A stretch of DNA of 64,000 bases from Syntrophales bacterium (GCA_023229765.1 JALNYO010000001.1:66569-130568); one strand, 5' to 3'. Numbered from the stretch's first letter, positions 3,084-48,243 are shown. Notes: generated by a model from the sequence alone, not told the origin. Numbers and translations: made by a program.

Positions 3084-3977
3084 ATGACTATAAATAAGGT
3101 GGGAATAATCGCGAATACTGCCAAGGAAGGGTCAAGCGGTTATACGGTCGATCTGCGGAAATGGCTGCTCAAACGCGGTCTGGAGGTTTATCTCGAAGAG
3201 GGAATTGCCGCGGAAATAGGCCTTCTGGAACCTGAGAAAAGCAGGCTTTGGCTGCAGGCGGATCTGATCGTCGTGTTTGGCGGCGATGGAACGATACTGC
3301 GGACGGCCCGTTTGCTGTCGGAACACGATATCCCCATTGTCGGCGTCAACCTCGGCGTTTTTGGGTACCTCACCGAGGTGAACCTCGACGAGATGTACAG
3401 CGCGCTGGAGGAGATTCTTTCCGGAAGATTTCAGATCGAAACGCGGATGATGCTGCATGCGGAGATTCTGAAAGGCGATGCGCTTTTGCACGGGGGCTCG
3501 GTGCTCAATGACGTTGTCATCAATCGGGGCAATCTTTCCCGACTGGTGGAGCTGGAGACGTCGGTTGACGGCAGTTATCTGACGACCTTCAAGGCGGACG
3601 GCCTGATTGTGGCAACCCCGACCGGCTCCACTGCCTACTCTCTTGCCGCGGGGGGACCAATTGTTTTTCCGGAGCTGGGGTCCATCATCATAAATCCCAT
3701 CTGTCCCCACACGCTGACAAACAGGCCGGTGATCCTGCCGGAAGATGCTGTCGTGGAGGTGATCCTCAATACCCAGGAATCGGGGGCGACGGTCACCATG
3801 GACGGGCAGATATCTTTTCCGATAAATTATAAGGACAGGGTTTTAATTAAAAGATCAGAACAGGTAACGAAACTGGTTTCCTCTCCCCAGCGAGGCTATC
3901 TGGAAATTTTGAGGACTAAATTGGGATGGGGCGGCTCCCAGACAGGACTCTCCCGCAAAGAAACCGATGCTATCTGA
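3084..3977 (+). CDS. nadK: NAD+ kinase
   Basis: GGDGTILRTARLL, NLGVFGYLTE and DGLIVATPTGSTAYSLAAGGPIV motifs. Start chosen at ATG 3084 (MTINKVGIIAN). The ORF is open from 2985. Confidence 0.9.
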   Translation: MTINKVGIIANTAKEGSSGYTVDLRKWLLKRGLEVYLEEGIAAEIGLLEPEKSRLWLQADLIVVFGGDGTILRTARLLSEHDIPIVGVNLGVFGYLTEVNLDEMYSALEEILSGRFQIETRMMLHAEILKGDALLHGGSVLNDVVINRGNLSRLVELETSVDGSYLTTFKADGLIVATPTGSTAYSLAAGGPIVFPELGSIIINPICPHTLTNRPVILPEDAVVEVILNTQESGATVTMDGQISFPINYKDRVLIKRSEQVTKLVSSPQRGYLEILRTKLGWGGSQTGLSRKETDAI

Positions 3978-5646
3978 GTTGAATATCCGCGATTTCGCCA
4001 TTATCGACGAACTGCAGGTGAGATTCACCGAAGGTCTGACCGTTATTTCCGGGGAGACGGGGGCGGGGAAGTCGATTCTTATCGGTGCGGTGGGGCTCCT
4101 TCTGGGGGAGAGGGCGAGCGCCGACATGATCCGTTCCCTGAAGGACGAGGCGGTTGTCGAGGCTCTTTTTGATATTCGCGGGCAAAAGACCCTGCAGGCA
4201 AGGATTAGCGAAATGGGGTTTGGAGAAGCAGACGAGATAATTATTCGTCGGGTGGTTTCCCGTTCCGGAAAGAACCGTGTTTATATCAACGGCCGGATCG
4301 GGGCGCTGTCTTCGCTGGCCGAAATCGGGGAATCGCTGATCAATATCTGCTCTCAGAATGCCCATCAAACGATCCTGCAGACGGATAACCAGATAGATAT
4401 ACTTGATGAATTTGGCAGCCTTTTGCCGCTACGCGAGGAATATCGAAAAATCTACGACTATTATCGCCTGCTGGGAGGCGAATTGCGTCTCCTTGAGGAG
4501 AAACAGGGCAAGCGGGCCGAGCGGGAGGAACTGCTGCGCTATCAAATTGAGGAGATCGGCCGCGCCGAGATCCTGGCCGGCGAAGATGCGGCCCTCTCCG
4601 AGGAAAAGAATATCCTCATCAATATTCAGAAGCTTTCGAATCTGTCGCAGTCAGCTTATGAATCACTTTATTCTAAAGAGGAATCAGTGCTTGCCGGGCT
4701 GCACGAGGTAGTTGCCGCGGTTAAGGAAATAAGAAAGATCGATCCTTCCCTGGGATTGTCAGGGCAGGAAATGGATGAATTTTATTACCGGATTGAGGAG
4801 GCGGCCCTGACGCTTCGCGATTACGCCAATCATCTTGCGTTCGATCCACTCCGGCTGGAGGCGATTGAAGAGCGACTGGAGCTTTTGGGGAACTTGAAAA
4901 GGAAATACGGGGGAACCCTCTTGGCTGTTTTGGAAAAATTTGGTGATGCGAAGAAGGAGATAGAAGCGATTTCGACGGTGGAGGATGAGATAACAGTACT
5001 GGCGGGCCGCATCGCTGAGGAAAAGAAACGGTTATGGGCGGCGGCGGCGGAGCTTTCCGCGCAGAGACGACAGGCCGCGTCGGTATTGATGAGTTCAGTC
5101 GAGGATGAGATCAGATCCTTGAGAATGGACAATGCCAGATTTGCGGTTGTTTTTCATGAACGCGAAAAAAGTAACGGTGAGGACGCTCCCCATGAGAAGG
5201 GGAACGATTTCCCGGAATTTTACCTGGCGGCGAATGTCGGCGAAGAGCTGAAACCACTGCGGAATGTGGCATCCGGCGGAGAGCTTTCCCGGATCATGCT
5301 CGCCTTTAAAAAGGTTTTGGCGACGACCGGTTCAGTAGGAACGATCGTTTTCGATGAGGTGGACAGCGGAATCGGCGGGGCGACAGCGGAGATCGTCGGC
5401 AAAAGACTTCAGGAAGTTGCCCGTAGTCATCAGGTCATCTGTATAACGCATCTCCCCCAGATTGCCTGCCGCGGGGAGCGTCATTATCTGGCAGCCAAAC
5501 ATGTTATTGAAAACCGAACGAGTACCAGTGTCTCCATTCTTTCTGATGATGAACGCGTCGAAGAGATAGCCCGAATGTTGGGCGGGGTGGAGTTGACTAA
5601 AAAAACGAGAGAGCACGCCCGGGAGATGCTTTTTACCGCCCGGTAA
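3967..5646 (+). CDS. recN: DNA repair protein RecN
   Basis: MLSELNIRDFAIIDEL...ISGETGAGKSILIGAVGLLLGERA, a long coiled-coil middle and a C-terminal ASGGELSRIMLA...FDEVDSGIGG. The nadK-recN synteny is conserved. Confidence 0.95.
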   Translation: MLSELNIRDFAIIDELQVRFTEGLTVISGETGAGKSILIGAVGLLLGERASADMIRSLKDEAVVEALFDIRGQKTLQARISEMGFGEADEIIIRRVVSRSGKNRVYINGRIGALSSLAEIGESLINICSQNAHQTILQTDNQIDILDEFGSLLPLREEYRKIYDYYRLLGGELRLLEEKQGKRAEREELLRYQIEEIGRAEILAGEDAALSEEKNILINIQKLSNLSQSAYESLYSKEESVLAGLHEVVAAVKEIRKIDPSLGLSGQEMDEFYYRIEEAALTLRDYANHLAFDPLRLEAIEERLELLGNLKRKYGGTLLAVLEKFGDAKKEIEAISTVEDEITVLAGRIAEEKKRLWAAAAELSAQRRQAASVLMSSVEDEIRSLRMDNARFAVVFHEREKSNGEDAPHEKGNDFPEFYLAANVGEELKPLRNVASGGELSRIMLAFKKVLATTGSVGTIVFDEVDSGIGGATAEIVGKRLQEVARSHQVICITHLPQIACRGERHYLAAKHVIENRTSTSVSILSDDERVEEIARMLGGVELTKKTREHAREMLFTAR

Positions 5647-5675
5647 ATTATTGAAAAGATGACAAGGGATGAAAA

Positions 5676-6134
5676 ATGCTTAGAAAAGCGCGCATAGGCG
5701 ACGTAAAGACCATTCACAGGCTGATCAATATCTCCGCCGGCAAGGGGGAGATGCTGCCCCGTTCGCTAATGGACATATACGGAAGCCTGAGGGATTTTTT
5801 TGTCTATTACAACGAAAGAGACGGTGAGATTGTCGGCACCTGCGCAATGAACATAACCTGGGAAAACCTCGCCGAAATTAGATCCCTTAACGTTGCAGAA
5901 GAGCGGAGACGAGAGGGGATTGGACGCAAACTGGTCGAAGCCTGCATATCCGAGGCGGTTACGCTGGAACTCTATCGGATATTCGCGCTTACATACCAGC
6001 GGGAGTTCTTTCTGAAGCTGGGTTTTCAGTATGTAGATCGCGATACCCTGCCGCAAAAGGTATGGTCGGACTGTTTGCGTTGTCCCAAATATCCCGATTT
6101 CTGCGATGAAATATCAATGATATTGGAGCTTTGA
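5676..6134 (+). CDS. GNAT family N-acetyltransferase (short ArgA-like)
   Basis: 152 aa with RREGIGRKLVEAC (acetyl-CoA binding Q/RxxGxG/A motif) and the typical GNAT length. Confidence 0.75.
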   Translation: MLRKARIGDVKTIHRLINISAGKGEMLPRSLMDIYGSLRDFFVYYNERDGEIVGTCAMNITWENLAEIRSLNVAEERRREGIGRKLVEACISEAVTLELYRIFALTYQREFFLKLGFQYVDRDTLPQKVWSDCLRCPKYPDFCDEISMILEL

Positions 6135-23013: not shown

Positions 23014-23757
23014 TCAAATCGTTATCTCCAGTCCGTCCGTTGCGGCGATTGTTTGCGGAAATATTGCGGCGGCGGTTCGCCTTGCATCGTCTCGTTCTTC
23101 AAGGGTCTGATACAAAAAAGCGTCGAAGTGGGTGAGGGCGAGGCGTTTCGCCTTGGCCTCGGCGGCGATTCGGGCCGCCGTCTCCGGGTTCAGGTGCGGC
23201 CAGGCCTCATTCGCCTGTCCCCTTTTAAAGGCGCATTCGGTGATCAGCATATCGGCGTCAGTCCCTATCCGGACCGCATTTTCGCAATAACCGGTGTCGG
23301 AGCAATGGCCGATTGTTACCCCCTCAACTTCCAATCGGTAGCCAAGCGTCAGGGATGCGTGCCGGAGCGGCAGCGCCTGGACAAAGAAGGGAAGGGAGGA
23401 TGACTCTTCCGGCATTTCCAATATGTCCGAGGGATAGGGCAGTTGCGCAAGCGGCATGGTGAAAGGGGCATTGAGCAGGGTGTCGAGAATCCGGTTTGTG
23501 TTTTTTGGCCCGCAGATGGTGAGTTTTTCCCGGAAATTAAATTTCCCCAGGATGTGCAGCCCCGCCAGATGATCGAGGTGAAAGTGGCTTATGAAGATAA
23601 AAACAGGTTTTCTGCCGCTGATGTAGCGGTCAACTCGCTGAATGCCGTTCCCGGCGTCGAAGATGATATCAAAGTTTTTGGTCTGGACAAGGGTTGAAAG
23701 TGTGTTCCCCGTCTTTGTATCGTACCAGCCGTTTGTCCCTAAAAAGACGATCTTCAT
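23014..23757 (-). CDS. MBL-fold metallo-hydrolase (RNase Z-like short form)
   Basis: MKIVFLGTNG...ISHFHLDHLAGL...HCSDTG...LTHF. ATG 23757 lies 6 nt after GGAGA. The ORF is open to 23772. Confidence 0.8.
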   Translation of the reverse strand: MKIVFLGTNGWYDTKTGNTLSTLVQTKNFDIIFDAGNGIQRVDRYISGRKPVFIFISHFHLDHLAGLHILGKFNFREKLTICGPKNTNRILDTLLNAPFTMPLAQLPYPSDILEMPEESSSLPFFVQALPLRHASLTLGYRLEVEGVTIGHCSDTGYCENAVRIGTDADMLITECAFKRGQANEAWPHLNPETAARIAAEAKAKRLALTHFDAFLYQTLEERDDARRTAAAIFPQTIAATDGLEITI

Positions 23758-23956
23758 TTTCATTCTCCGCATCTTTGTCTATGAGCGCCGGGGGAAGTCC
23801 GCCATTAAATTGATCTGCCGGCAACGATAATTTATCCTGCCGGCGAATGAACGGACGAAGGAGCGAACTGCTTTCTCTGGCGGCGGGTGGGACATAGCAC
23901 AATTTAGGGAAGGATGTCTATTTCAACGCAAAAATTATAACCGCCAGATCATATAT

Positions 23957-23985
23957 TTTAACAGACGTTAAATAAATATTGACAG
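23957..23985 (+). promoter_or_regulatory. Operator/promoter module A: palindrome TTTAAC-N4-GTTAAA fused to TAAATATTGACAG (-35 TTGACA)
   Basis: The 19 nt GTTAAATAAATATTGACAG is identical to 27868-27886. TTGACA-N15-GATACA follows, with the same spacing as module B. It lies upstream of the DJ-1/MBL operon. Confidence 0.55.
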
Positions 23986-24105
23986 GGGATAGCGGGTAGG
24001 ATACAAAAAATCAAACAGTCGTAAAATAGCCCTCTCCAAGTTATCAGTCTTAGTTACAAGCTTGTTTAGACGGCATTATAAAATGAATGAAGGGAAAGGC
24101 AGCCT

Positions 24106-24939
24106 ATGAAAAAAATATTGGTTATAATCTTGATAGTATTGGTCGTTTTGGGACTGAGCATATGGCTATTTCTGCCCGCAGGGTTGCGCGCCCTGGGACT
24201 GCATCCGGATTACCTCGGTGAAAAATACCAACTTCCCGGCGGCAGGGCCCTGATCATCACAACCAGTCAAGATCAGCTTGGACCAAACGGGGCGAAAACC
24301 GGCGTCTTCGGGTCGGAGATGACTGTTCCTTATTATGAGTTCACTGAAGGCGGGATGAAGGTTGAAATAGCCAGTGTCAAGGGGGGGGAAATCCCCATTG
24401 ATCCCCTGTCTTTTAAATGGCCTATCAAAACAGCCGCTGATGCCCGCTTCCTGAATGATCCAGAGTTTCAGCGGAGGGTCAAACAGTCCCTTCCGCTCGC
24501 CACAGTTGATTTCACCGGTTACGATATCATCTATCTTGCCGGCGGGTGGGGAGCGGCTTATGACCTGGGCGCTTCCGCAGCGCTGGGCCGAAAAATCAGC
24601 CAGGCCTATTCAGCCGGCAAGGTTATAGGAGGGGTTTGTCACGGTCCGCTTGGTCTGCTTTTGGCGACGGATCAAAACAATTTTCCCCTGGTAAAGGGAC
24701 GTCATCTTACCGGAGTGACGGACAAGCAGGTCAGGGAACTGGGGATTACCATGACGCCCCAGCATCCGGAGCGGGAACTGCGGGCGGCCGGAGCGCTCTT
24801 TGAGGGCCGGACGGCCTTCCGGGATATGTTTGCCAATCACTCGGTGGTGGACGGCCAACTGGTAACCGGTCAAAACCAGAATGCCAGCGCGGAAGTGGCC
24901 AATAAAATGATGATGACCGCCAAAGGAAAAATTCGATGA
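24106..24939 (+). CDS. DJ-1/PfpI (type 1 glutamine amidotransferase-like) protein with an N-terminal membrane anchor or signal
   Basis: N-terminal MKKILVIILIVLVVLGLSIWLF and a nucleophile-elbow GGVCHGPLGLL. Confidence 0.75.
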   Translation: MKKILVIILIVLVVLGLSIWLFLPAGLRALGLHPDYLGEKYQLPGGRALIITTSQDQLGPNGAKTGVFGSEMTVPYYEFTEGGMKVEIASVKGGEIPIDPLSFKWPIKTAADARFLNDPEFQRRVKQSLPLATVDFTGYDIIYLAGGWGAAYDLGASAALGRKISQAYSAGKVIGGVCHGPLGLLLATDQNNFPLVKGRHLTGVTDKQVRELGITMTPQHPERELRAAGALFEGRTAFRDMFANHSVVDGQLVTGQNQNASAEVANKMMMTAKGKIR

Positions 24940-26480
24940 ACGAACCACTACCCATCTCTTCAGGAGAAAAAGTTTCTCGCTTTATCATCGGTCTGATCGG
25001 ACTGTTCTTTTTGTTTCTCGGCATCGGGTTTTATACGTTTCCGGAGCTGCTGGCCGCGGCATTTTTTATTCAGCCGCTTTCCCTGCAGGGATTAAACTCG
25101 CTAAGAGGAGATTTCGGCGGTGTTTTTCTGGGAATGAGTTTTTTTTGTTTTTTTGGGGCTGCAACCGGCCGACGCCGCTGGCTTGTTGTTACGATCATTT
25201 TTCTGCTGCTGATAGTTTCCGGACGTCTGCTCAGTTTCGCTCTGGACGGCTTTTCGGCAGCAGGGCTTCAGTCGGTGATAATTGAGATCGTTTTGCTGAT
25301 TGTTTTGACGGCCTCGACCGTCATGATTCCCCCCAAAAATGAATCTGATAAAAGCCATCAGGAAGAGATAAAACTTCGCAACAGCAGATACACCCGACGT
25401 CAGACCCTTAAAATAATTGAAGTTTCCCTGGCAGCTCTCATTGCCGCGATCGTAACCGGCCTGATTTTCTCCCGGAGAAAGATCGGATTGTCCCTGGTAA
25501 ACGAGATTGCCGCCAAATTTATCACCAAAGATCCCCTGCGCGACCTGCCTGACGGTCTTCATGTCATTCTTTGCGGATCCGGATCCCCAATGCCCGATGC
25601 AAGACGGGCATCAGCCGGCACGGCCGTTATCGCCGGGAAAAATCTTTACGTGGTCGATGCCGGCCCGGGCAGTGAGAGAAAACTGGAGCTCATGAGAATA
25701 AATCCCGGGGGAGTCAAGGCCGTTTTACTTACCCATTTTCATTCCGATCACATCGGCGACCTGGGAGAACTGATGCTGAAGAGATGGTCATCCGGTTCAG
25801 CGAAAAATCCTCTTGATGTGTTCGGTCCGACCGGCGTCGAGACAGTGGTTAATGGGTTCAATCTGGCCTACGCGCTGGACTCCGGATACCGGATCGCCCA
25901 TCACGGTGCGGCAATCTGTCCGCCCGCTGGCGCCGGAGGCACGGCCAGAACATTTAATTTCCCGGCGGGGAAAAATGAAACCGTCATTATTGAAGAAAAC
26001 GGCGTCAGGATAACCGCCTTCGCGGTTGATCATCGTCCGGTAACGCCGGCAGTCGGCTATCGTTTTGATTACAAGGGCCGCTCCGTCGTGATCAGCGGCG
26101 ATACGGTTCCGTGTCAATCGCTTCTCAACCAGGCCAGGGGGGTTGACGTGCTGGTGCATGAGGCCCTCCAGCCGGCCATAAACAATATCCTGAGGGACGT
26201 GAACAGAAAATTCGGCAGGTTCAACCTGGCAAAAATAATGAGTGATATAAATGGCTACCACACATCGACAGAGGATGCGGCCAAAATCGCCGGAGAGGCG
26301 GGAGTTAAACATCTGCTTTTGACCCACATCCTGCCGCCTCTTCCTGTTTCCGATCTGGAGGAGGCGTTTCTGGGTGACGCCGAAAAATTTTATAAAGGCC
26401 CGATTACCATCGGTGAGGACGGCATTTCTTTGAGCCTGCCTGCCGGAACCAAGGATATTATCAAACGGGCGCTCTTGTAA
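24936..26480 (+). CDS. Membrane-anchored MBL-fold metallo-hydrolase
   Basis: The N-terminal ~190 aa hold 4-5 TM helices. They are followed by LCGSGSPMPD...DAGPGS...LLTHFHSDHIGDLGEL...HEA...LTH. The start overlaps the upstream stop (ATGA). Confidence 0.78.
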   Translation: MNEPLPISSGEKVSRFIIGLIGLFFLFLGIGFYTFPELLAAAFFIQPLSLQGLNSLRGDFGGVFLGMSFFCFFGAATGRRRWLVVTIIFLLLIVSGRLLSFALDGFSAAGLQSVIIEIVLLIVLTASTVMIPPKNESDKSHQEEIKLRNSRYTRRQTLKIIEVSLAALIAAIVTGLIFSRRKIGLSLVNEIAAKFITKDPLRDLPDGLHVILCGSGSPMPDARRASAGTAVIAGKNLYVVDAGPGSERKLELMRINPGGVKAVLLTHFHSDHIGDLGELMLKRWSSGSAKNPLDVFGPTGVETVVNGFNLAYALDSGYRIAHHGAAICPPAGAGGTARTFNFPAGKNETVIIEENGVRITAFAVDHRPVTPAVGYRFDYKGRSVVISGDTVPCQSLLNQARGVDVLVHEALQPAINNILRDVNRKFGRFNLAKIMSDINGYHTSTEDAAKIAGEAGVKHLLLTHILPPLPVSDLEEAFLGDAEKFYKGPITIGEDGISLSLPAGTKDIIKRALL

Positions 26481-26539
26481 GCATTGTCCATTTTTGCCCT
26501 TCGTTGCGTCCGATACGGGCATGGTGGTTAATTGGCCCA

Positions 26540-26966
26540 GTAGGTATATTCCCCTTTCCCGCTTTTCGGAAGGCCCAGGGGCGCATCGATGTAGATGCGT
26601 CCTTCTATTATAATTTGCGCCGCCATTGTCGCTTGTGAACATCACGATGGTGTTTCCGTTGAGTCCTTGCGCCGTTAATTCCGCAAGCACCCTGCCGATT
26701 CCCCGGTCGAGGGACTTGAGCATCGCGGCATAGACCAGTAAACGATGATCCCTGATGTCCGCAAGCGAGTAGTAATCAGCTTTCAAGGCCTGAAGCGGCG
26801 TGTGCGGAGTGTTATAGGCCGGGTACAGGAAAAACGGCCGCTCCTTGTTGGCCGCAATGACCTTGACTGCTTCGTTCGACAGATAGTCCGTCATATATTC
26901 GGGGGGGGGTGAAGCGCTTCGAGCCGTTGCGAGTAATTGCAAAGGGAAGATTGATGAACTCGTCAA
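26540..26966 (-). pseudogene. Sulfatase gene remnant (internal fragment only)
   Basis: PPEYMTDYLSNEAVKVIAANKERPFFLYPAYNTPHTPLQA...LDRGIGRVLAELTAQGLNGNTIVMFTSDNGG matches the middle of type I sulfatases. The N-terminal CxPxR/metal-site region is absent. After DNGG the frame decays and then runs antisense through the neighbouring MBL gene. Confidence 0.55.
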
Positions 26967-27081
26967 AAGTCAGAATTTTCCGGAAACAGCTTTCTAACAT
27001 ACTTATATTATTAAGTTCCAAATTTAAAAATTGGCAATTTTATGGTTTTTTACGAGGCCATTAAACTTCGTTTTGTGAACA

Positions 27082-27765
27082 TTAAGCTTCGCTTTCATCA
27101 TTTACTTGAGCGCCGCCGCGGATTAATTGTTTCAGGAGTGGCAAAAACAGGGCGGTCAGATTTTCTTTCACCCATTTTTTGTACTCGGGGCTGGAAGGGG
27201 CAACCCCGAGCACGCCGGCATGGAAGCTGCCGGCACCCAGGTAATTTATCGCCAGTACGTTAAAATTGTGGGCGAAGTTTTCGATATTCCGATCTGCGGC
27301 ACGTGCTGAAGATGTTTCTTTAAAGAGTGGAATCCATTGCACAAAGAATTCCTGTAGCACTCGGTAACAGGGAACAATTTGAGATTCCCCGACCTGAACC
27401 TGGTTGAGCAGAAGAATCCTCTGGGCCTCGGGGTGCGCCAGGTTAAATTCTATCAAACGGTCAATGTAAACGGACAGTCCCCGGTCCGCGCCCATTCCGG
27501 CGGTTTCCTTAAGCCACTTCGCATTTTCTTCGTAATATTCTTCAGAGATATCGACAAGAACCGCCTCAAAGAGCGCGGCCTTTGTCGAAAAATAGTACGC
27601 AATGAGCGGGTAATTAAGACCGGCGTCGTTGCCGATCATTCTTATGCTCGCCGTGTGGTAAGGATGCTCCGAGAATATCTTCCTTGCGGAACGAAGTACT
27701 CTCTCGACGGTATCATTTTTTTTCGTTTTGTCCGGCGTCTTATTGCCGGATTTGTCCTTTTTCAA
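27082..27765 (-). CDS. TetR/AcrR family transcriptional regulator
   Basis: N-terminal HTH: RVLRSARKIFSEHPYHTASIRMIGNDAGLNYPLIAYYFSTKAALFEAVL. Confidence 0.88.
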   Translation of the reverse strand: MKKDKSGNKTPDKTKKNDTVERVLRSARKIFSEHPYHTASIRMIGNDAGLNYPLIAYYFSTKAALFEAVLVDISEEYYEENAKWLKETAGMGADRGLSVYIDRLIEFNLAHPEAQRILLLNQVQVGESQIVPCYRVLQEFFVQWIPLFKETSSARAADRNIENFAHNFNVLAINYLGAGSFHAGVLGVAPSSPEYKKWVKENLTALFLPLLKQLIRGGAQVNDESEA

Positions 27766-27857
27766 TGAATTTCTCCTGTTCTGATGGGCATTCGCAATTA
27801 TTTATGGCTTTTCGAAAGGCTATGTTTATCAATTAAAATAAACGCATGTCAAGTAAA

Positions 27858-27886
27858 TTTAACGATTGTTAAATAAATATTGACAG
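27858..27886 (+). promoter_or_regulatory. Operator/promoter module B: TTTAAC-N4-GTTAAA plus TAAATATTGACAG
   Basis: It has the same architecture as 23957-23985. It lies in the divergent tetR / dehalogenase intergenic region and is followed by TTGACA-N15-GATAGG. Confidence 0.55.
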
Positions 27887-27996
27887 CGGACAGGGGATTG
27901 GATAGGAGAAAAAACCAGCAGCCGTCAAATATCCCTGCCCTGCCAGCATCCTTAATGTTGAGCGGCAGGAAAGGCATTTAATCAGGAGGTGTACAG

Positions 27997-28941
27997 ATGA
28001 AAATTCTACGAACGCCCGAGGAACGATTCAAGAATCTCCCCGCTTATCCTTTCGAACCCCAATATGTCGAGGTTCCTGACGGGGAGGGTGCAACCCTGAG
28101 AATACATTATGTAGATGAGGGGCCCCGGGATGCCGGGATTGTTTTGATGATGCATGGGGAGCCCTCCTGGTCTTTTCTCTATCGGAAGATGATTCCCGTC
28201 CTTGTGAGAGCAGGCCAGCGGGTGATTGCCCCCGACCTGGTCGGTTTTGGCAGGTCGGATAAGCCGGCCAGCCGCAATGATTATACGTATGAGCGCCATG
28301 TGAACTGGATGCTTTCGTTGCTTTCGGGCCTCCGACTCAACAGGATAACGCTGGTCTGCCAGGATTGGGGGGGGCTTGTCGGGCTTCGTCTGGTTGCGGC
28401 GAACCCGGATCTCTTCGAGCGGGTTGTCGCCGCCAATACGGGCATGCCCACGGGAGACAATCAAATATCCGCCGCCTTTCTGGAATGGCAGAAATATTCA
28501 CTGAAAGTTCCCCAGTTCGATGTGGGAGGCATCATGAAAATGGCCAATTTGACGGCAGGCCCGGACAACCCTCTGCCTATCCTTTCCGACGAGGTTGTTG
28601 CCGCCTACAATGCGCCTTTCCCCGATGAGTCGTACAAGGAAGGCGCGCGCATCTTCCCGTCGCTGGTCCCGACAAGACCGGACGATCCTTCGTCGTTGGC
28701 CAACCGCAAGGCATGGGAAGTCCTGGCCACTTTCAACAGGCCTTTCCTGACGGCATTCAGCGATGGCGATCCCATCACCCGCGGTGGCGAGCACATTCTG
28801 CAACAGAGGATTTCTGGGGCTCAGGGGCAGCCCCATACGACAATTAAAGGGGCTGGGCACTTTCTTCAGGAAGACAAGGGAGAGGAGTTTGCCGGGGTCA
28901 TTGTGGATTTCATCGCCAAAACCCCGACGCGGGTTCATTAA
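27997..28941 (+). CDS. dhmA: Haloalkane dehalogenase (alpha/beta hydrolase, HLD-I type)
   Basis: MHGEPSWSFLYRKMIP...APDLVGFGRSDKP...LVCQDWGG (nucleophile Asp)...GAGHFLQED (catalytic His). Confidence 0.85.
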   Translation: MKILRTPEERFKNLPAYPFEPQYVEVPDGEGATLRIHYVDEGPRDAGIVLMMHGEPSWSFLYRKMIPVLVRAGQRVIAPDLVGFGRSDKPASRNDYTYERHVNWMLSLLSGLRLNRITLVCQDWGGLVGLRLVAANPDLFERVVAANTGMPTGDNQISAAFLEWQKYSLKVPQFDVGGIMKMANLTAGPDNPLPILSDEVVAAYNAPFPDESYKEGARIFPSLVPTRPDDPSSLANRKAWEVLATFNRPFLTAFSDGDPITRGGEHILQQRISGAQGQPHTTIKGAGHFLQEDKGEEFAGVIVDFIAKTPTRVH

Positions 28942-29043: not shown

Positions 29044-29093
29044 GCATCCCCCTTGCCTCTCCCGCTAAGGAAAGGCAAGGGATGCGATTTTTA
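29044..29093 (+). terminator. Hairpin terminator between the convergent dehalogenase and GcvH-like genes
   Basis: GCATCCC(cc)TTGCC-16 nt-GGCAAGGGATGC (12 bp with a 2 nt bulge) followed by GATTTTTA. Confidence 0.5.
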
Positions 29094-29909
29094 TGAGGCT
29101 TTATGCCGGGAAACAACTGAATCCAGAATCTGGACAAGCTGTTTTGAATTGATCGAACGGAGCAGGTCTATCAGGTTGGTTACCCGGGCGCCTCCATCCT
29201 GCATGGTGGGGCCGACTTGGGACGAGCTCATTTTCATAAGCGAGCATACCCTGTTGGAGATATCGTTTTCCTCCCGGTGTTTCCAGAAGAGCGCTTTTCT
29301 CCCGAAAAAGAGTTTTTTAAAATCGTTTTCGAGATTGTCCGGTTTGATCGTAACGAGCCAGCCATTTCCCTGCGGATCGGAGGTGAGCAGCCCCGGGTTG
29401 TTTTTAAGACGGTAATTGGTCGCGATAATGATCCCCGAAACGGGAGAAATCACCGGCAATACGTAATCTCCCTGAATAATGTGGGCAAAACATTCTCCAG
29501 CGCCGGTGAAAGAGCCCTCCGCGGGCAGGATTACCAACTGCACGTTGGAGATAAGCATCGTGATAAGTGAATCCAAACCGATCCGCACCTTTTCCTGGGT
29601 TTCCACCTTTACCCAGCAGTGATCAGGATGAAAGAGGAAGGAGCCGTTGTCGAGCTGGTATGACGGATCGTCGAAAAACGACCCCTCCTCTTCTATTTCC
29701 GATGATTCGGAAAAATTGCTGTCCCCCCCGTTTTTCATTGCGCGGTCGAAAGGGCAGGTCTCGCAGTGGTCGTTTCTGTCGCACAGCTTGTAGGATACGA
29801 GCCCTGTTTTCATCCAGACGCATTTGTTTTCTTCTGCTGGAATTAGGGGATAACTTTTGCACTTTGAGCTCATTGAATCCATCTCTGCACCTTTTATTCC
29901 TTCAAGCAT
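29091..29909 (-). CDS. GcvH-like (lipoyl-domain fold) protein with an N-terminal Cys4 motif and no lipoyl lysine
   Basis: C-x12-C-x5-C-x2-C (CVWMKTGLVSYKLCDRNDHCETCPFD), then an H-protein-like core HCWVKVE..VRIGLDSL...LP..G...SPVSGIIIATNYRLKNNPGLLTSDPQGNGWLVTIKP. The position aligned to the GcvH lipoyl-Lys is Asp. The C-terminal region carries VGPTMQDGG. Confidence 0.7.
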   Translation of the reverse strand: MLEGIKGAEMDSMSSKCKSYPLIPAEENKCVWMKTGLVSYKLCDRNDHCETCPFDRAMKNGGDSNFSESSEIEEEGSFFDDPSYQLDNGSFLFHPDHCWVKVETQEKVRIGLDSLITMLISNVQLVILPAEGSFTGAGECFAHIIQGDYVLPVISPVSGIIIATNYRLKNNPGLLTSDPQGNGWLVTIKPDNLENDFKKLFFGRKALFWKHREENDISNRVCSLMKMSSSQVGPTMQDGGARVTNLIDLLRSINSKQLVQILDSVVSRHKAS

Positions 29910-29915
29910 CTCTAT

Positions 29916-30611
29916 TTAAGAAACCAGGAAGAAATCTTTTACCAGCTTATCCCAGTTCTCCGGATCCATGTTTCTGGCAATGCCGTCCACCGGCACACCA
30001 CCATCCTGAGAAAGTGCTCCCAGGTTGTAATTTCCCCGGGCCAGAAGGCTGTCTCTGACGCCATCCATCCATTTTATGGCCAGATCTCCGGTCAGAAGAT
30101 TTTTCAGGTTGGATGAAACCCTCGGGGATTGAACCTTGATCAGCCAGGACTGCCCATAAGGATCGCTGTTTACCCCGGCGGGAGATTTCAGCAGGGCTTC
30201 GTTTACGGCAACTATTTTACCGTCAACGGGGGAGAGCATATCAATCAGTTTTGAGCCTACCTGCACGCTCCACCCCTTTTCTCCCTGGGCGACTTCGGCG
30301 CCAACCTGCGGAAGATTGATTGAATCTATTTTGCCGAGCATTTTCTGTGCGAAGTCATCCATTCCCACCTTCATGATGTTTCCTTCCTCGGGCGTCGCCC
30401 AGCTATGCCCCTGGTGGAAAAACATCCCCTGAGCCGGCATGCTGAACCAGTTGCCGATTGCCGAAACGGCGTTGGCAACTCCTTGGTAAACCGCCTCAAC
30501 GGGTCCTTTCAAAAAATTCCAGAACACAACAAAGGTAGCCAGCACCGCGATTATCACCAGATATTCAATGCCCTTGGTGGCGAATATGTCAACGTAGGTG
30601 AACCCTTCCAT
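29916..30611 (-). CDS. Membrane-anchored GcvH-like protein
   Basis: N-terminal TM helix IEYLVIIAVLATFVVFWNFL. The core is HQGHSWATPEEGNIMKVGMDDFAQKMLGKIDSINLPQVGAEV...SPVDGKIVAVNEALLKSPAGVNSDPYGQSWLIKV. The Lys is displaced by one residue from the lipoyl position (GSKL versus SVKA). The C-terminal region carries LGALSQDGG. Confidence 0.7.
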   Translation of the reverse strand: MEGFTYVDIFATKGIEYLVIIAVLATFVVFWNFLKGPVEAVYQGVANAVSAIGNWFSMPAQGMFFHQGHSWATPEEGNIMKVGMDDFAQKMLGKIDSINLPQVGAEVAQGEKGWSVQVGSKLIDMLSPVDGKIVAVNEALLKSPAGVNSDPYGQSWLIKVQSPRVSSNLKNLLTGDLAIKWMDGVRDSLLARGNYNLGALSQDGGVPVDGIARNMDPENWDKLVKDFFLVS

Positions 30612-48108: not shown

Positions 48109-48227
48109 ATAGTTAACGGTTGACGGTTAACAGTTGACGGTTAACCGCCGGCAAATATTGAGGTCTTCAATTCAATGCAAACCGGAACCCGGAAACCGTC
48201 AACCGGAAACCGTAAACCGTCAACCGT
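48108..48227. repeat. Inverted heptamer arrays (NACGGTT x5, ~35 nt spacer, NAACCGN x~7) in the rpsB-tsf spacer
   Basis: The left arm 48108-48142 reads AATAGTT AACGGTT GACGGTT AACAGTT GACGGTT. The right arm 48178-48227 reads ...GAAACCG TCAACCG GAAACCG TAAACCG TCAACCGT. This is the same family as 1209-1299 and 1668-1821. Confidence 0.85.
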
Positions 48228-48243
48228 AAGCAAGGAGGATAAA

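Follow-up and report, generated by a model that had tools for sequence, protein, structure and literature searches.

Upstream of two different transcription units in a 64-kb stretch of DNA from a Syntrophales bacterium (hereafter the window; coordinates are counted from its first letter), a similar sequence of about 78 bp is found. One copy (module 1) precedes an operon for a DJ-1/PfpI-family protein and a membrane metallo-beta-lactamase-fold (MBL) hydrolase, and the other (module 2) lies between a haloalkane dehalogenase (HLD) gene and a divergent tetR gene. This arrangement raises the question of whether the TetR-family regulator encoded at 27082–27765 controls both units through the shared sequence, and of how that sequence came to stand in front of the two. 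The first-pass annotation of the locus had proposed that the regulator binds a palindrome in both modules and co-regulates the dehalogenase and the DJ-1/MBL genes as a small detoxification regulon. Phylogenetic footprinting over about 20 related genomes supports such binding and co-regulation: the palindrome accompanies tetR orthologues in at least 17 loci, stands before other DJ-1/MBL operons and before a relocated dehalogenase operon, and in one case changes together with the recognition helix of the regulator. The two modules are most probably paralogous copies of one sigma-70-type promoter equipped with the operator or operators of this TetR. The term 'detoxification' is only a plausible label for the regulon.

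The shared cassette and its parts

Both modules open with the palindrome TTTAAC-N4-GTTAAA, as had been described, and in the window this sequence is confined to 23957–23972 and 27858–27873 even when 1 mismatch is allowed (chance expectation 0.11). The 19-mer GTTAAATAAATATTGACAG occurs in two exact copies, at 23967–23985 and 27868–27886, both on the plus strand, so that the identical pair reported earlier is confirmed; no third copy was found in the 64 kb with up to 3 mismatches allowed (chance expectation 0.01). A repeat finder lists the module pair as a 54-nt family of 78% identity (D6), and pairwise alignment also recovers it. TTGACA-N15-GATACA and TTGACA-N15-GATAGG are present in the two modules at equal spacing, and the two leader strings that follow read as the first-pass annotation had given them. 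On the 3' side of the -35 hexamer the similarity is significant (local score 19, compared with 8.0 ± 1.2 for shuffled sequences; 0 of 2000 shuffles reached 19). To the left of the palindrome it is at chance level, the observed score being reached by 943 of 2000 shuffles. The modules are therefore bounded at 23957–24033 and 27858–27936, about 78 nt, and the earlier estimate of ~80 bp stands. Module 1, a full operator-promoter cassette on the plus strand 5' of the DJ-1/MBL operon, is identical in a 99%-related strain (L131/L132; loci in other genomes are given by such numbers). Module 2, a full cassette in the same orientation, has orthologous cassettes in L002, L068, L125 and L139.

Operator sites were scored with a position weight matrix (PWM) built solely from the sites of relatives, which are foreign to the window, and the scores were compared with those of 20 shuffled windows, whose maximum was 11.2 bits. 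The first palindrome (O1) is perfect in both modules. That of module 2 (TTTAAC-GATT-GTTAAA, 27858–27873; 26.8 bits) is the best match in the window and lies between two divergent -35 boxes, 5 bp from the minus-strand hexamer and 6 bp from the plus-strand one. On the dehalogenase side, the putative promoter consists of a consensus -35 TTGACA (27880–27885, plus strand), kept in all dehalogenase-type cassettes, and, after a 17-nt spacer, a weak candidate -10 TAGGAG (27903–27908, plus strand), whose counterpart in L002, L068, L125 and L139 is TAGGAG or TAGGAA. The predicted tetR promoter on the minus strand (27824–27852) has a -35 TTGACA at 27852 to 27847 and a -10 GATAAA or ATAAAC at 27830 to 27824; all tetR orthologue loci share the tetR-side TTGACA, 5 bp away from O1, and have a (C)ATAAT-like -10. 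Given 17-nt spacers, the centre of O1 falls near -48 to -50 (about -49.5) of both the tetR and the dehalogenase promoters. Transcription starts are predicted near 24014 and 27915 and, on the minus strand, at about 27818. Module 1 has the same arrangement of O1 and -35 in front of the DJ-1/MBL operon. Here O1 is TTTAAC-AGAC-GTTAAA (23957–23972; 24.3 bits), and the putative consensus -35 TTGACA (23979–23984, plus strand) is kept, at 6–7 bp from O1, in the DJ-1 loci L128, L135 and L137. The candidate -10 TACAAA (24002–24007, plus strand), also weak and with a 17-nt spacer, is replaced in the orthologues by GAATGT or GAGCAT at the same spacing.

For the stretch after the -10, of which about 28 nt are alike in both modules, the first-pass annotation had spoken of a similar leader. 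The similarity is real by the shuffle test, but it is better explained by a degenerate second operator (O2), decayed in this lineage to a half-site CGT(N)AAA, than by an RNA element. Within this stretch module 1 reads CGTAAAA and module 2 CGTCAAA; both correspond to the operator's right half, at 54 and 56 bp from O1. In module 1 it forms part of an imperfect O2-like site, TCAAAC-AGTC-GTAAAA (24011–24026; 9 of 12 specified positions), whose position matches that of O2 in relatives; at 7.9 bits this site is the fifth best in the window, yet within the range of the shuffled windows. In module 2 the right half-site alone is left, (C)CGTCAAA, with GTCAAA at 27924–27929 of the O2 remnant at 27914–27929, and CCGT(T/C)AA is retained at this place in the dehalogenase-type cassettes of L002, L125 and L139. 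L003, L004 and distant loci have a complete second palindrome in the corresponding position, which is 51–52 bp from O1 in the distant relatives. A cis-regulatory RNA, such as a riboswitch or attenuator common to the two transcripts, could draw on the same ~28 nt of likeness 3' of the -10 and is hardly credible. An Rfam scan of 23500–28500 at a permissive E-value gave two chance-level matches, the best with 23.5 bits against a gathering score of 98. The alignment fold of five dehalogenase leaders reached -1.7 kcal/mol, with no compensatory pair and no consensus structure, and single-sequence fold z-scores of the leaders were +1.09 and -0.28. With no Rfam match near threshold, no covariation and unremarkable folding energies, a leader RNA was rejected. 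Because the core of the stretch equals an operator half-site, because relatives have full palindromes there and because the RNA alternatives fail, it is read as a decaying O2.

One further PWM match lies elsewhere in the window. The third-best site, TTTTTACCGCCCGGTAAATT at 5630–5649, scores 16.3 bits, above all shuffle maxima; it is situated at the stop codon of the open reading frame (ORF) 3967–5646, 30 nt before the ORF 5676–6134, and has no adjoining -35. It is a doubtful site, either a chance match or a weak additional one.

Conservation of the probable operator with the TetR family

The contexts of four TetR orthologues with 63–89% identity (L001, L002, L003 and L004) were examined. TTTAAC-N4-GTTAAA was found 5' of tetR in L001, L002 and L004, twice in the last of these, and L003 has two copies of a variant, TTTTAC-N4-GTAAAA, 5' of its tetR orthologue. 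In addition, 185,579 species genomes were scanned with the pattern TTTAAC-N4-GTTAAA-N5-8-TTGACA; counts were made from the matches listed and are minima. Most of the matches listed are chance occurrences in AT-rich genomes. In at least 13 loci located by the DNA pattern alone, tblastn revealed a TetR homologue of 41–88% identity adjoining the motif; among the non-Desulfobacterota matches listed, it found no adjacent homologue of this TetR. The palindrome, with the consensus TTTTAACGATCGTTAAAA, is thus known 5' of TetR orthologues of 41–89% identity in at least 17 loci of the Desulfobacterota. Two-strand matches, in which the palindrome is flanked by TGTCAA and TTGACA, all belong, among the matches listed, to metagenome-assembled genomes (MAGs) of deltaproteobacterial type (Desulfobacterales, Syntrophobacteria and Geobacter).

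The layout of the sites is conserved as well. In tetR loci found by the pattern, the intergenic region nearly always has two copies of TTTTAACGATCGTTAAAA 51–52 bp apart, and in most loci there are two operators at a spacing of 51–55 bp, in fixed register with the -35 and -10. O1 of the relatives lies between back-to-back TGTCAAG and CTTGACA boxes, with a CATAAT -10 on the tetR side 17 nt further, and O2 lies directly 3' of the TAGAAT- or TAGTGT-like -10 of the divergent promoter. The arms of O1 stay perfect while the surrounding sequence diverges. A single but pointed case suggests that recognition helix and operator co-vary: in an alignment of 14 orthologues, the L003 protein alone combines P53Q with changes beside it, so that its recognition helix reads NYQLVMYYF in place of NYPLIAYYF, and L003 is also the sole locus with altered half-sites, TTTTAC/GTAAAA, at both O1 and O2. 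A TetR_N helix-turn-helix (HTH) domain, an all-helical two-domain fold and a palindromic operator conserved near the promoter in at least 17 loci place the regulator in the TetR family.

Similarly, the motif marks several operons, being found before two transcription units in the window and before three in one relative. In L128–130, L135/136 and L137, the DJ-1 orthologues (82–84% identity) have upstream of them, in this order, O1, a 6–7-bp linker, TTGACA, 17 nt and GAATGT or GAGCAT. DJ-1/MBL operons with O1 plus -35 occur in four other lineages, even with tetR ~15 kb away; these include L111, a locus matched by the motif only, with a DJ-1/MBL operon behind O1 plus TTGACA. L128 and L001 (TetR orthologue of 86% identity) are situated on one 44.9-kb contig, where the tetR of L001, with an O1 of its own, is ~15 kb off. 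A second contig, syntenic with this one and the source of L129 and L139, encodes an identical DJ-1 protein in the same gene order, and the dehalogenase operon of L139, which consists of HLD, a 117-aa protein (s117), an Fe-alcohol dehydrogenase (Fe-ADH) and an aldehyde:ferredoxin oxidoreductase (AOR), retains the cassette though tetR is no longer adjacent. From these two contigs it follows that this organism has three sites, at the DJ-1 operon, the HLD-s117-FeADH-AOR operon and tetR. In L133, from a Desulfobacteraceae MAG (TetR 47% identical), DJ-1 and MBL are inside the tetR-divergent operon and are followed by the 117-aa gene, Fe-ADH and AOR. Over all loci, tblastn gave as the recurrent set around the motif DUF169, the 117-aa protein, Fe-ADH, AOR, DJ-1, MBL and HLD.

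Some further occurrences were noted. In L003 (1–8000), the TetR with the variant operator is encoded beside two dehalogenase-like hydrolases, four DUF169 genes, a VcrB-like gene and a reductive dehalogenase (PF13486); by this neighbourhood, the TetR family recurs near organohalide genes. Double-sided motif sites are also present in L089 (3020), L120 (1230–1296) and L111 (2257), all from MAGs with a tetR locus elsewhere: L089 shares its MAG with L058 and L120 with L007/L133, and the L111 site is the one before the DJ-1/MBL operon. These sites suggest multi-locus regulons in distant relatives. A metagenome scan with a specific 28-nt pattern returned 3 contigs, one with an orthologue fragment and two of unrelated context. 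The latter two, lake metagenome contigs, have a perfect TTTAACAATTGTTAAATAAATATTGACA followed by N17-TATAGT (L126, 2049–2076; L127, 1674–1701) 5' of a 509-aa radical-SAM-like ORF, and ACAATTGT recurs within the -35 region. A homologue of this TetR was absent within 11.9 kb.

Mode of action, origin and competing explanations

In the proposed mechanism, a TetR dimer would bind the 16–18-bp palindrome O1 (TTTAAC-N4-GTTAAA; TTTTAACGATCGTTAAAA in the family consensus). From there it would crowd sigma region 4 and the C-terminal domain of the alpha subunit (alpha-CTD) at both divergent promoters, hindering RNA polymerase at the -35/UP region, and O2, where intact, would block the transcription start region. 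A small ligand would release TetR, as in classical TetR repression, and tetR, the haloalkane dehalogenase gene and the DJ-1/MBL operon would thereby be switched on together. Binding by this TetR, promoter activity and transcription starts, and the ligand are inferred, as is repression rather than activation, because O1 adjoins the -35 hexamers (5–6 bp away) and does not lie on them.

Several points weigh against this scheme. Operators that overlap the core -35/-10 elements of both divergent promoters, as in the Tn10 type, are not found here, O1 being 5 and 6 bp off the -35 hexamers. It overlaps neither -35, and O2 is a mere half-site in this lineage, so steric repression is less obvious than in Tn10 tet. 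The -10 candidates TAGGAG and TACAAA are poor. The O1–O2 spacing varies within the close clade (47, 54 and 56 bp), and the co-variation of helix and operator concerns one lineage only. Support for the regulon comes from comparative genomics and is computational throughout. Site counts for the source organism cover the 64-kb window, so the regulon size there is a minimum.

Some of these features would suit an activator or dual regulator that acts from O1 near -49.5 in a class-I-like manner, upstream of promoters with a weak -10, binding of which would turn the operons on. O1 5–6 bp upstream of the -35 without overlap, the poor -10 hexamers and the decay of O2 in this clade all agree with it, and TetR-family activators exist, such as FasR, which is among the weak NCBIfam and Foldseek matches of this TetR. 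Activation is nevertheless unlikely. The -35 is a perfect TTGACA and should recruit polymerase without help. A full O2 covers the start region just 3' of the -10 in most relatives, where a repressor would be expected, and the divergent, self-regulated layout is typical of TetR repressors. It could also be argued that TetR does not use the palindrome at all and that the shared sequence is simply a strong promoter made up of a -35 and an UP-like A/T tract, or is bound by another, global factor. The region from O1 to the -35 is indeed A/T-rich (TAAATAAATA) and could serve as an UP element, and the pattern arises by chance in many AT-rich genomes. This explanation is improbable, since the palindrome tracks tetR orthologues over 41–89% identity, usually in two copies, changes along with the recognition helix in L003, and keeps perfect arms where the flanking sequence diverges.

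Two similar copies of ~78 bp only 3.9 kb apart, with a sulfatase fragment between them that shows rearrangement, could finally be taken for a small mobile or repetitive element, like a miniature inverted-repeat transposable element (MITE) or a repetitive extragenic palindrome (REP), or for a neutral relic of segmental duplication. There are just two copies in 64 kb, their left flanks are unrelated, and neither terminal repeats nor target duplications are seen. Both copies occupy orthologous, gene-specific positions in other genomes, and the specific 28-nt pattern is present in only 3 metagenome contigs. Such an origin is very improbable, and the class of mobile or REP-type repeats was rejected on the copy number, the unrelated flanks and the gene-specific orthologous positions. 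The preferred reading remains that of two TetR-controlled promoters of common descent.

How module 1 came to resemble module 2 is a separate matter. The spacer motif G(C/G)GG(A/T)CAGGG is common to all cassettes of the close clade, and DJ-1-type and dehalogenase-type cassettes therefore have a common origin. Module 1 agrees with module 2 at 63 of 77 positions, as against 52/72, 51/68 and 54/69 for the cassettes of its own DJ-1 orthologues. With the dehalogenase-type cassettes it also has the TAAATA linker, GGTAGGATA and the leader in common, and the linker differs among the three orthologous DJ-1 cassettes. We lean towards the view, suggested by these sequence comparisons, that the lineage comprising the window, L131 and L132 acquired its DJ-1 cassette from a dehalogenase-type one by copying or conversion. 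The alternative is that the likeness of module 1 to the dehalogenase type is a retained ancestral state. To polarise the direction of such copying, an alignable outgroup would be needed. Copying that included the tetR-side promoter was rejected, the homology to the left of O1 not being significant.

Gene neighbourhood, known systems and meaning

The gene calls of the first-pass annotation (DJ-1/PfpI, membrane MBL, TetR and haloalkane dehalogenase) hold in Pfam, NCBIfam NF002043 and PDB 6f9o. The first gene of the operon behind module 1 (24106–24939, plus strand) encodes a 277-aa DJ-1/PfpI-family protein with a hydrophobic N-terminus (Pfam PF01965, E 5.5e-14). Overlapping its stop codon is the gene for a 514-aa protein with DUF4345 and an MBL-fold hydrolase (24936–26480, plus strand; Pfam PF12706/PF00753); in relatives the MBL gene is always 3' of the DJ-1 gene. 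The tetR gene (27082–27765, minus strand) has a TTG start and an AGGAGA ribosome-binding site and encodes a 227-aa TetR/AcrR-family regulator (Pfam PF00440, E 1.1e-10, residues 24–69); a protein with 100% identity to it is encoded in a Syntrophales MAG. Its AlphaFold2 model has 10 helices in an all-helical two-domain TetR fold, with a predicted local distance difference test (pLDDT) score of 85.9. Foldseek matched the model to RutR, TM1030, Rv0078 and EthR with probability 1.0 and TM-scores of 0.58–0.63, and the best structural matches (RutR, TM1030 and Rv0078) are at or below 20% identity. PDB sequence search, NCBIfam and Foldseek gave generic or HTH-level similarity only, with no equivalog and no clue to the ligand. 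The product of 27997–28941 (plus strand), monocistronic in the window, is a 314-aa alpha/beta hydrolase and, by sequence, an HLD-I haloalkane dehalogenase of predicted activity: it scores 465 bits with NCBIfam NF002043 (cut-off 265) and aligns with PDB 6f9o (E 6e-129), with the QDWGG and GHFLQED motifs of nucleophile and base conserved.

Divergent from module 1 is the gene of a small MBL-fold protein of 252 aa (23014–23772, minus strand; Pfam PF12706). On the minus strand, TTAAAA-N16-TATAAT (23961 to 23934), which faces this gene, shares bases with the left arm of the module 1 O1. The gene is not conserved beside DJ-1 in L128, L135 or L137, and its place as a third target of the regulon is speculative. 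Fe-ADH, AOR, the 117-aa gene (s117) and the DUF169 gene were looked for in the window and are absent. Between the MBL stop and the tetR stop lies a sulfatase gene fragment (26588–26903, minus strand) that covers Pfam profile positions 142–253 of 301; it aligns at 31% identity with the central part of a 466-aa sulfatase from a relative. In relatives, intact sulfatase and anaerobic-sulfatase-maturase genes adjoin tetR, so the fragment looks like the scar of a rearrangement of the region. Further away, two adjoining minus-strand genes (29091–29909 and 29916–30611) encode unusually long proteins (272 and 231 aa), each with a glycine-cleavage H-protein domain, next to a gene for an NrfD-like membrane protein. 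The heptamer TCAACCG, in places as the variant TTAACCG, is repeated in a long tandem array at 1639–1855, and related GTTGCCG/GTTGACG arrays in opposite orientation are found nearby (1241–1299) and ~46 kb away (48112–48240).

Among known systems, the locus resembles Tn10 tetR-tetA in that a TetR-family gene is divergent from its target, with palindromic operators in the shared intergenic region; two operators are ancestral here, and the regulator is presumably self-regulated. Unlike Tn10, O1 is placed between the -35 boxes without overlap and this lineage keeps only half of O2; the target gene encodes a hydrolytic dehalogenase and not an efflux pump, and a second, unlinked operon has the same cassette. 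The O2 of relatives, over the start region, recalls QacR and other TetR repressors with an operator just 3' of the -10, and fits a block between closed complex and productive transcription. The 16–18-bp palindrome here fits one dimer, whereas QacR IR1 has 28 bp and takes two dimers, and the O2 of the window is degenerate. DhaR of Rhodococcus is a TetR-type regulator. In the dhaR-dhaA pair, a regulator gene controls a haloalkane dehalogenase gene, as cited in PMC5605520. Common to both systems are a dedicated regulator gene beside a haloalkane dehalogenase gene and expression that would be inducible, not constitutive; in contrast, the enzyme here is an HLD-I with a weak match to DhaA-type structures (E about 1e-26), in an anaerobic Syntrophales host. 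In mycobacteria, the TetR-type KstR (Rv3574) represses a large lipid/cholesterol regulon that is marked by a conserved palindrome (PMC1995591). As with KstR, a single palindromic motif with an AAC..GTT core recurs in front of distinct operons, and genome comparison brought the regulon to light. The present regulon differs in its size of 2–3 promoters and in phylum and gene content, and similarity of the regulator to PDB and NCBIfam proteins is at HTH level only.

As a multi-operon regulon of a TetR-family protein, the system is real but ordinary; it is useful for annotation and adds nothing conceptually new to TetR biology. A literature search found no description of this regulator, motif or regulon. 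The HLD/Fe-ADH/AOR operon of the relatives would, by analogy, convert a haloalkane to the alcohol, the aldehyde and the acid. The aerobic 1,2-dichloroethane pathway is the model for these steps. The DJ-1 and MBL proteins may plausibly act as handlers of reactive aldehydes. It is possible, though we regard it as doubtful, that the TetR family and its TTTTAACGATCGTTAAAA operator form an undescribed regulon, widely conserved in the Desulfobacterota (HLD, 117-aa protein, Fe-ADH, AOR, DUF169, DJ-1 and MBL) that would combine an anaerobic hydrolytic haloalkane route with aldehyde clean-up, and that would have been rewired between lineages by the copying of whole promoter-operator cassettes, as seemingly happened at the DJ-1 operon of the window.

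With TTTTAACGATCGTTAAAA, a concrete operator and regulon can be proposed for an uncharacterised TetR family often found among sulfate-reducing and syntrophic members of the Desulfobacterota. The cassette copying would provide a small, clean case of regulon rewiring. Hydrolytic haloalkane dehalogenases of strict anaerobes are tied by the shared operator to alcohol- and aldehyde-oxidising enzymes and to DJ-1/MBL, which hints at a non-reductive organohalide or aldehyde-handling pathway in these bacteria.

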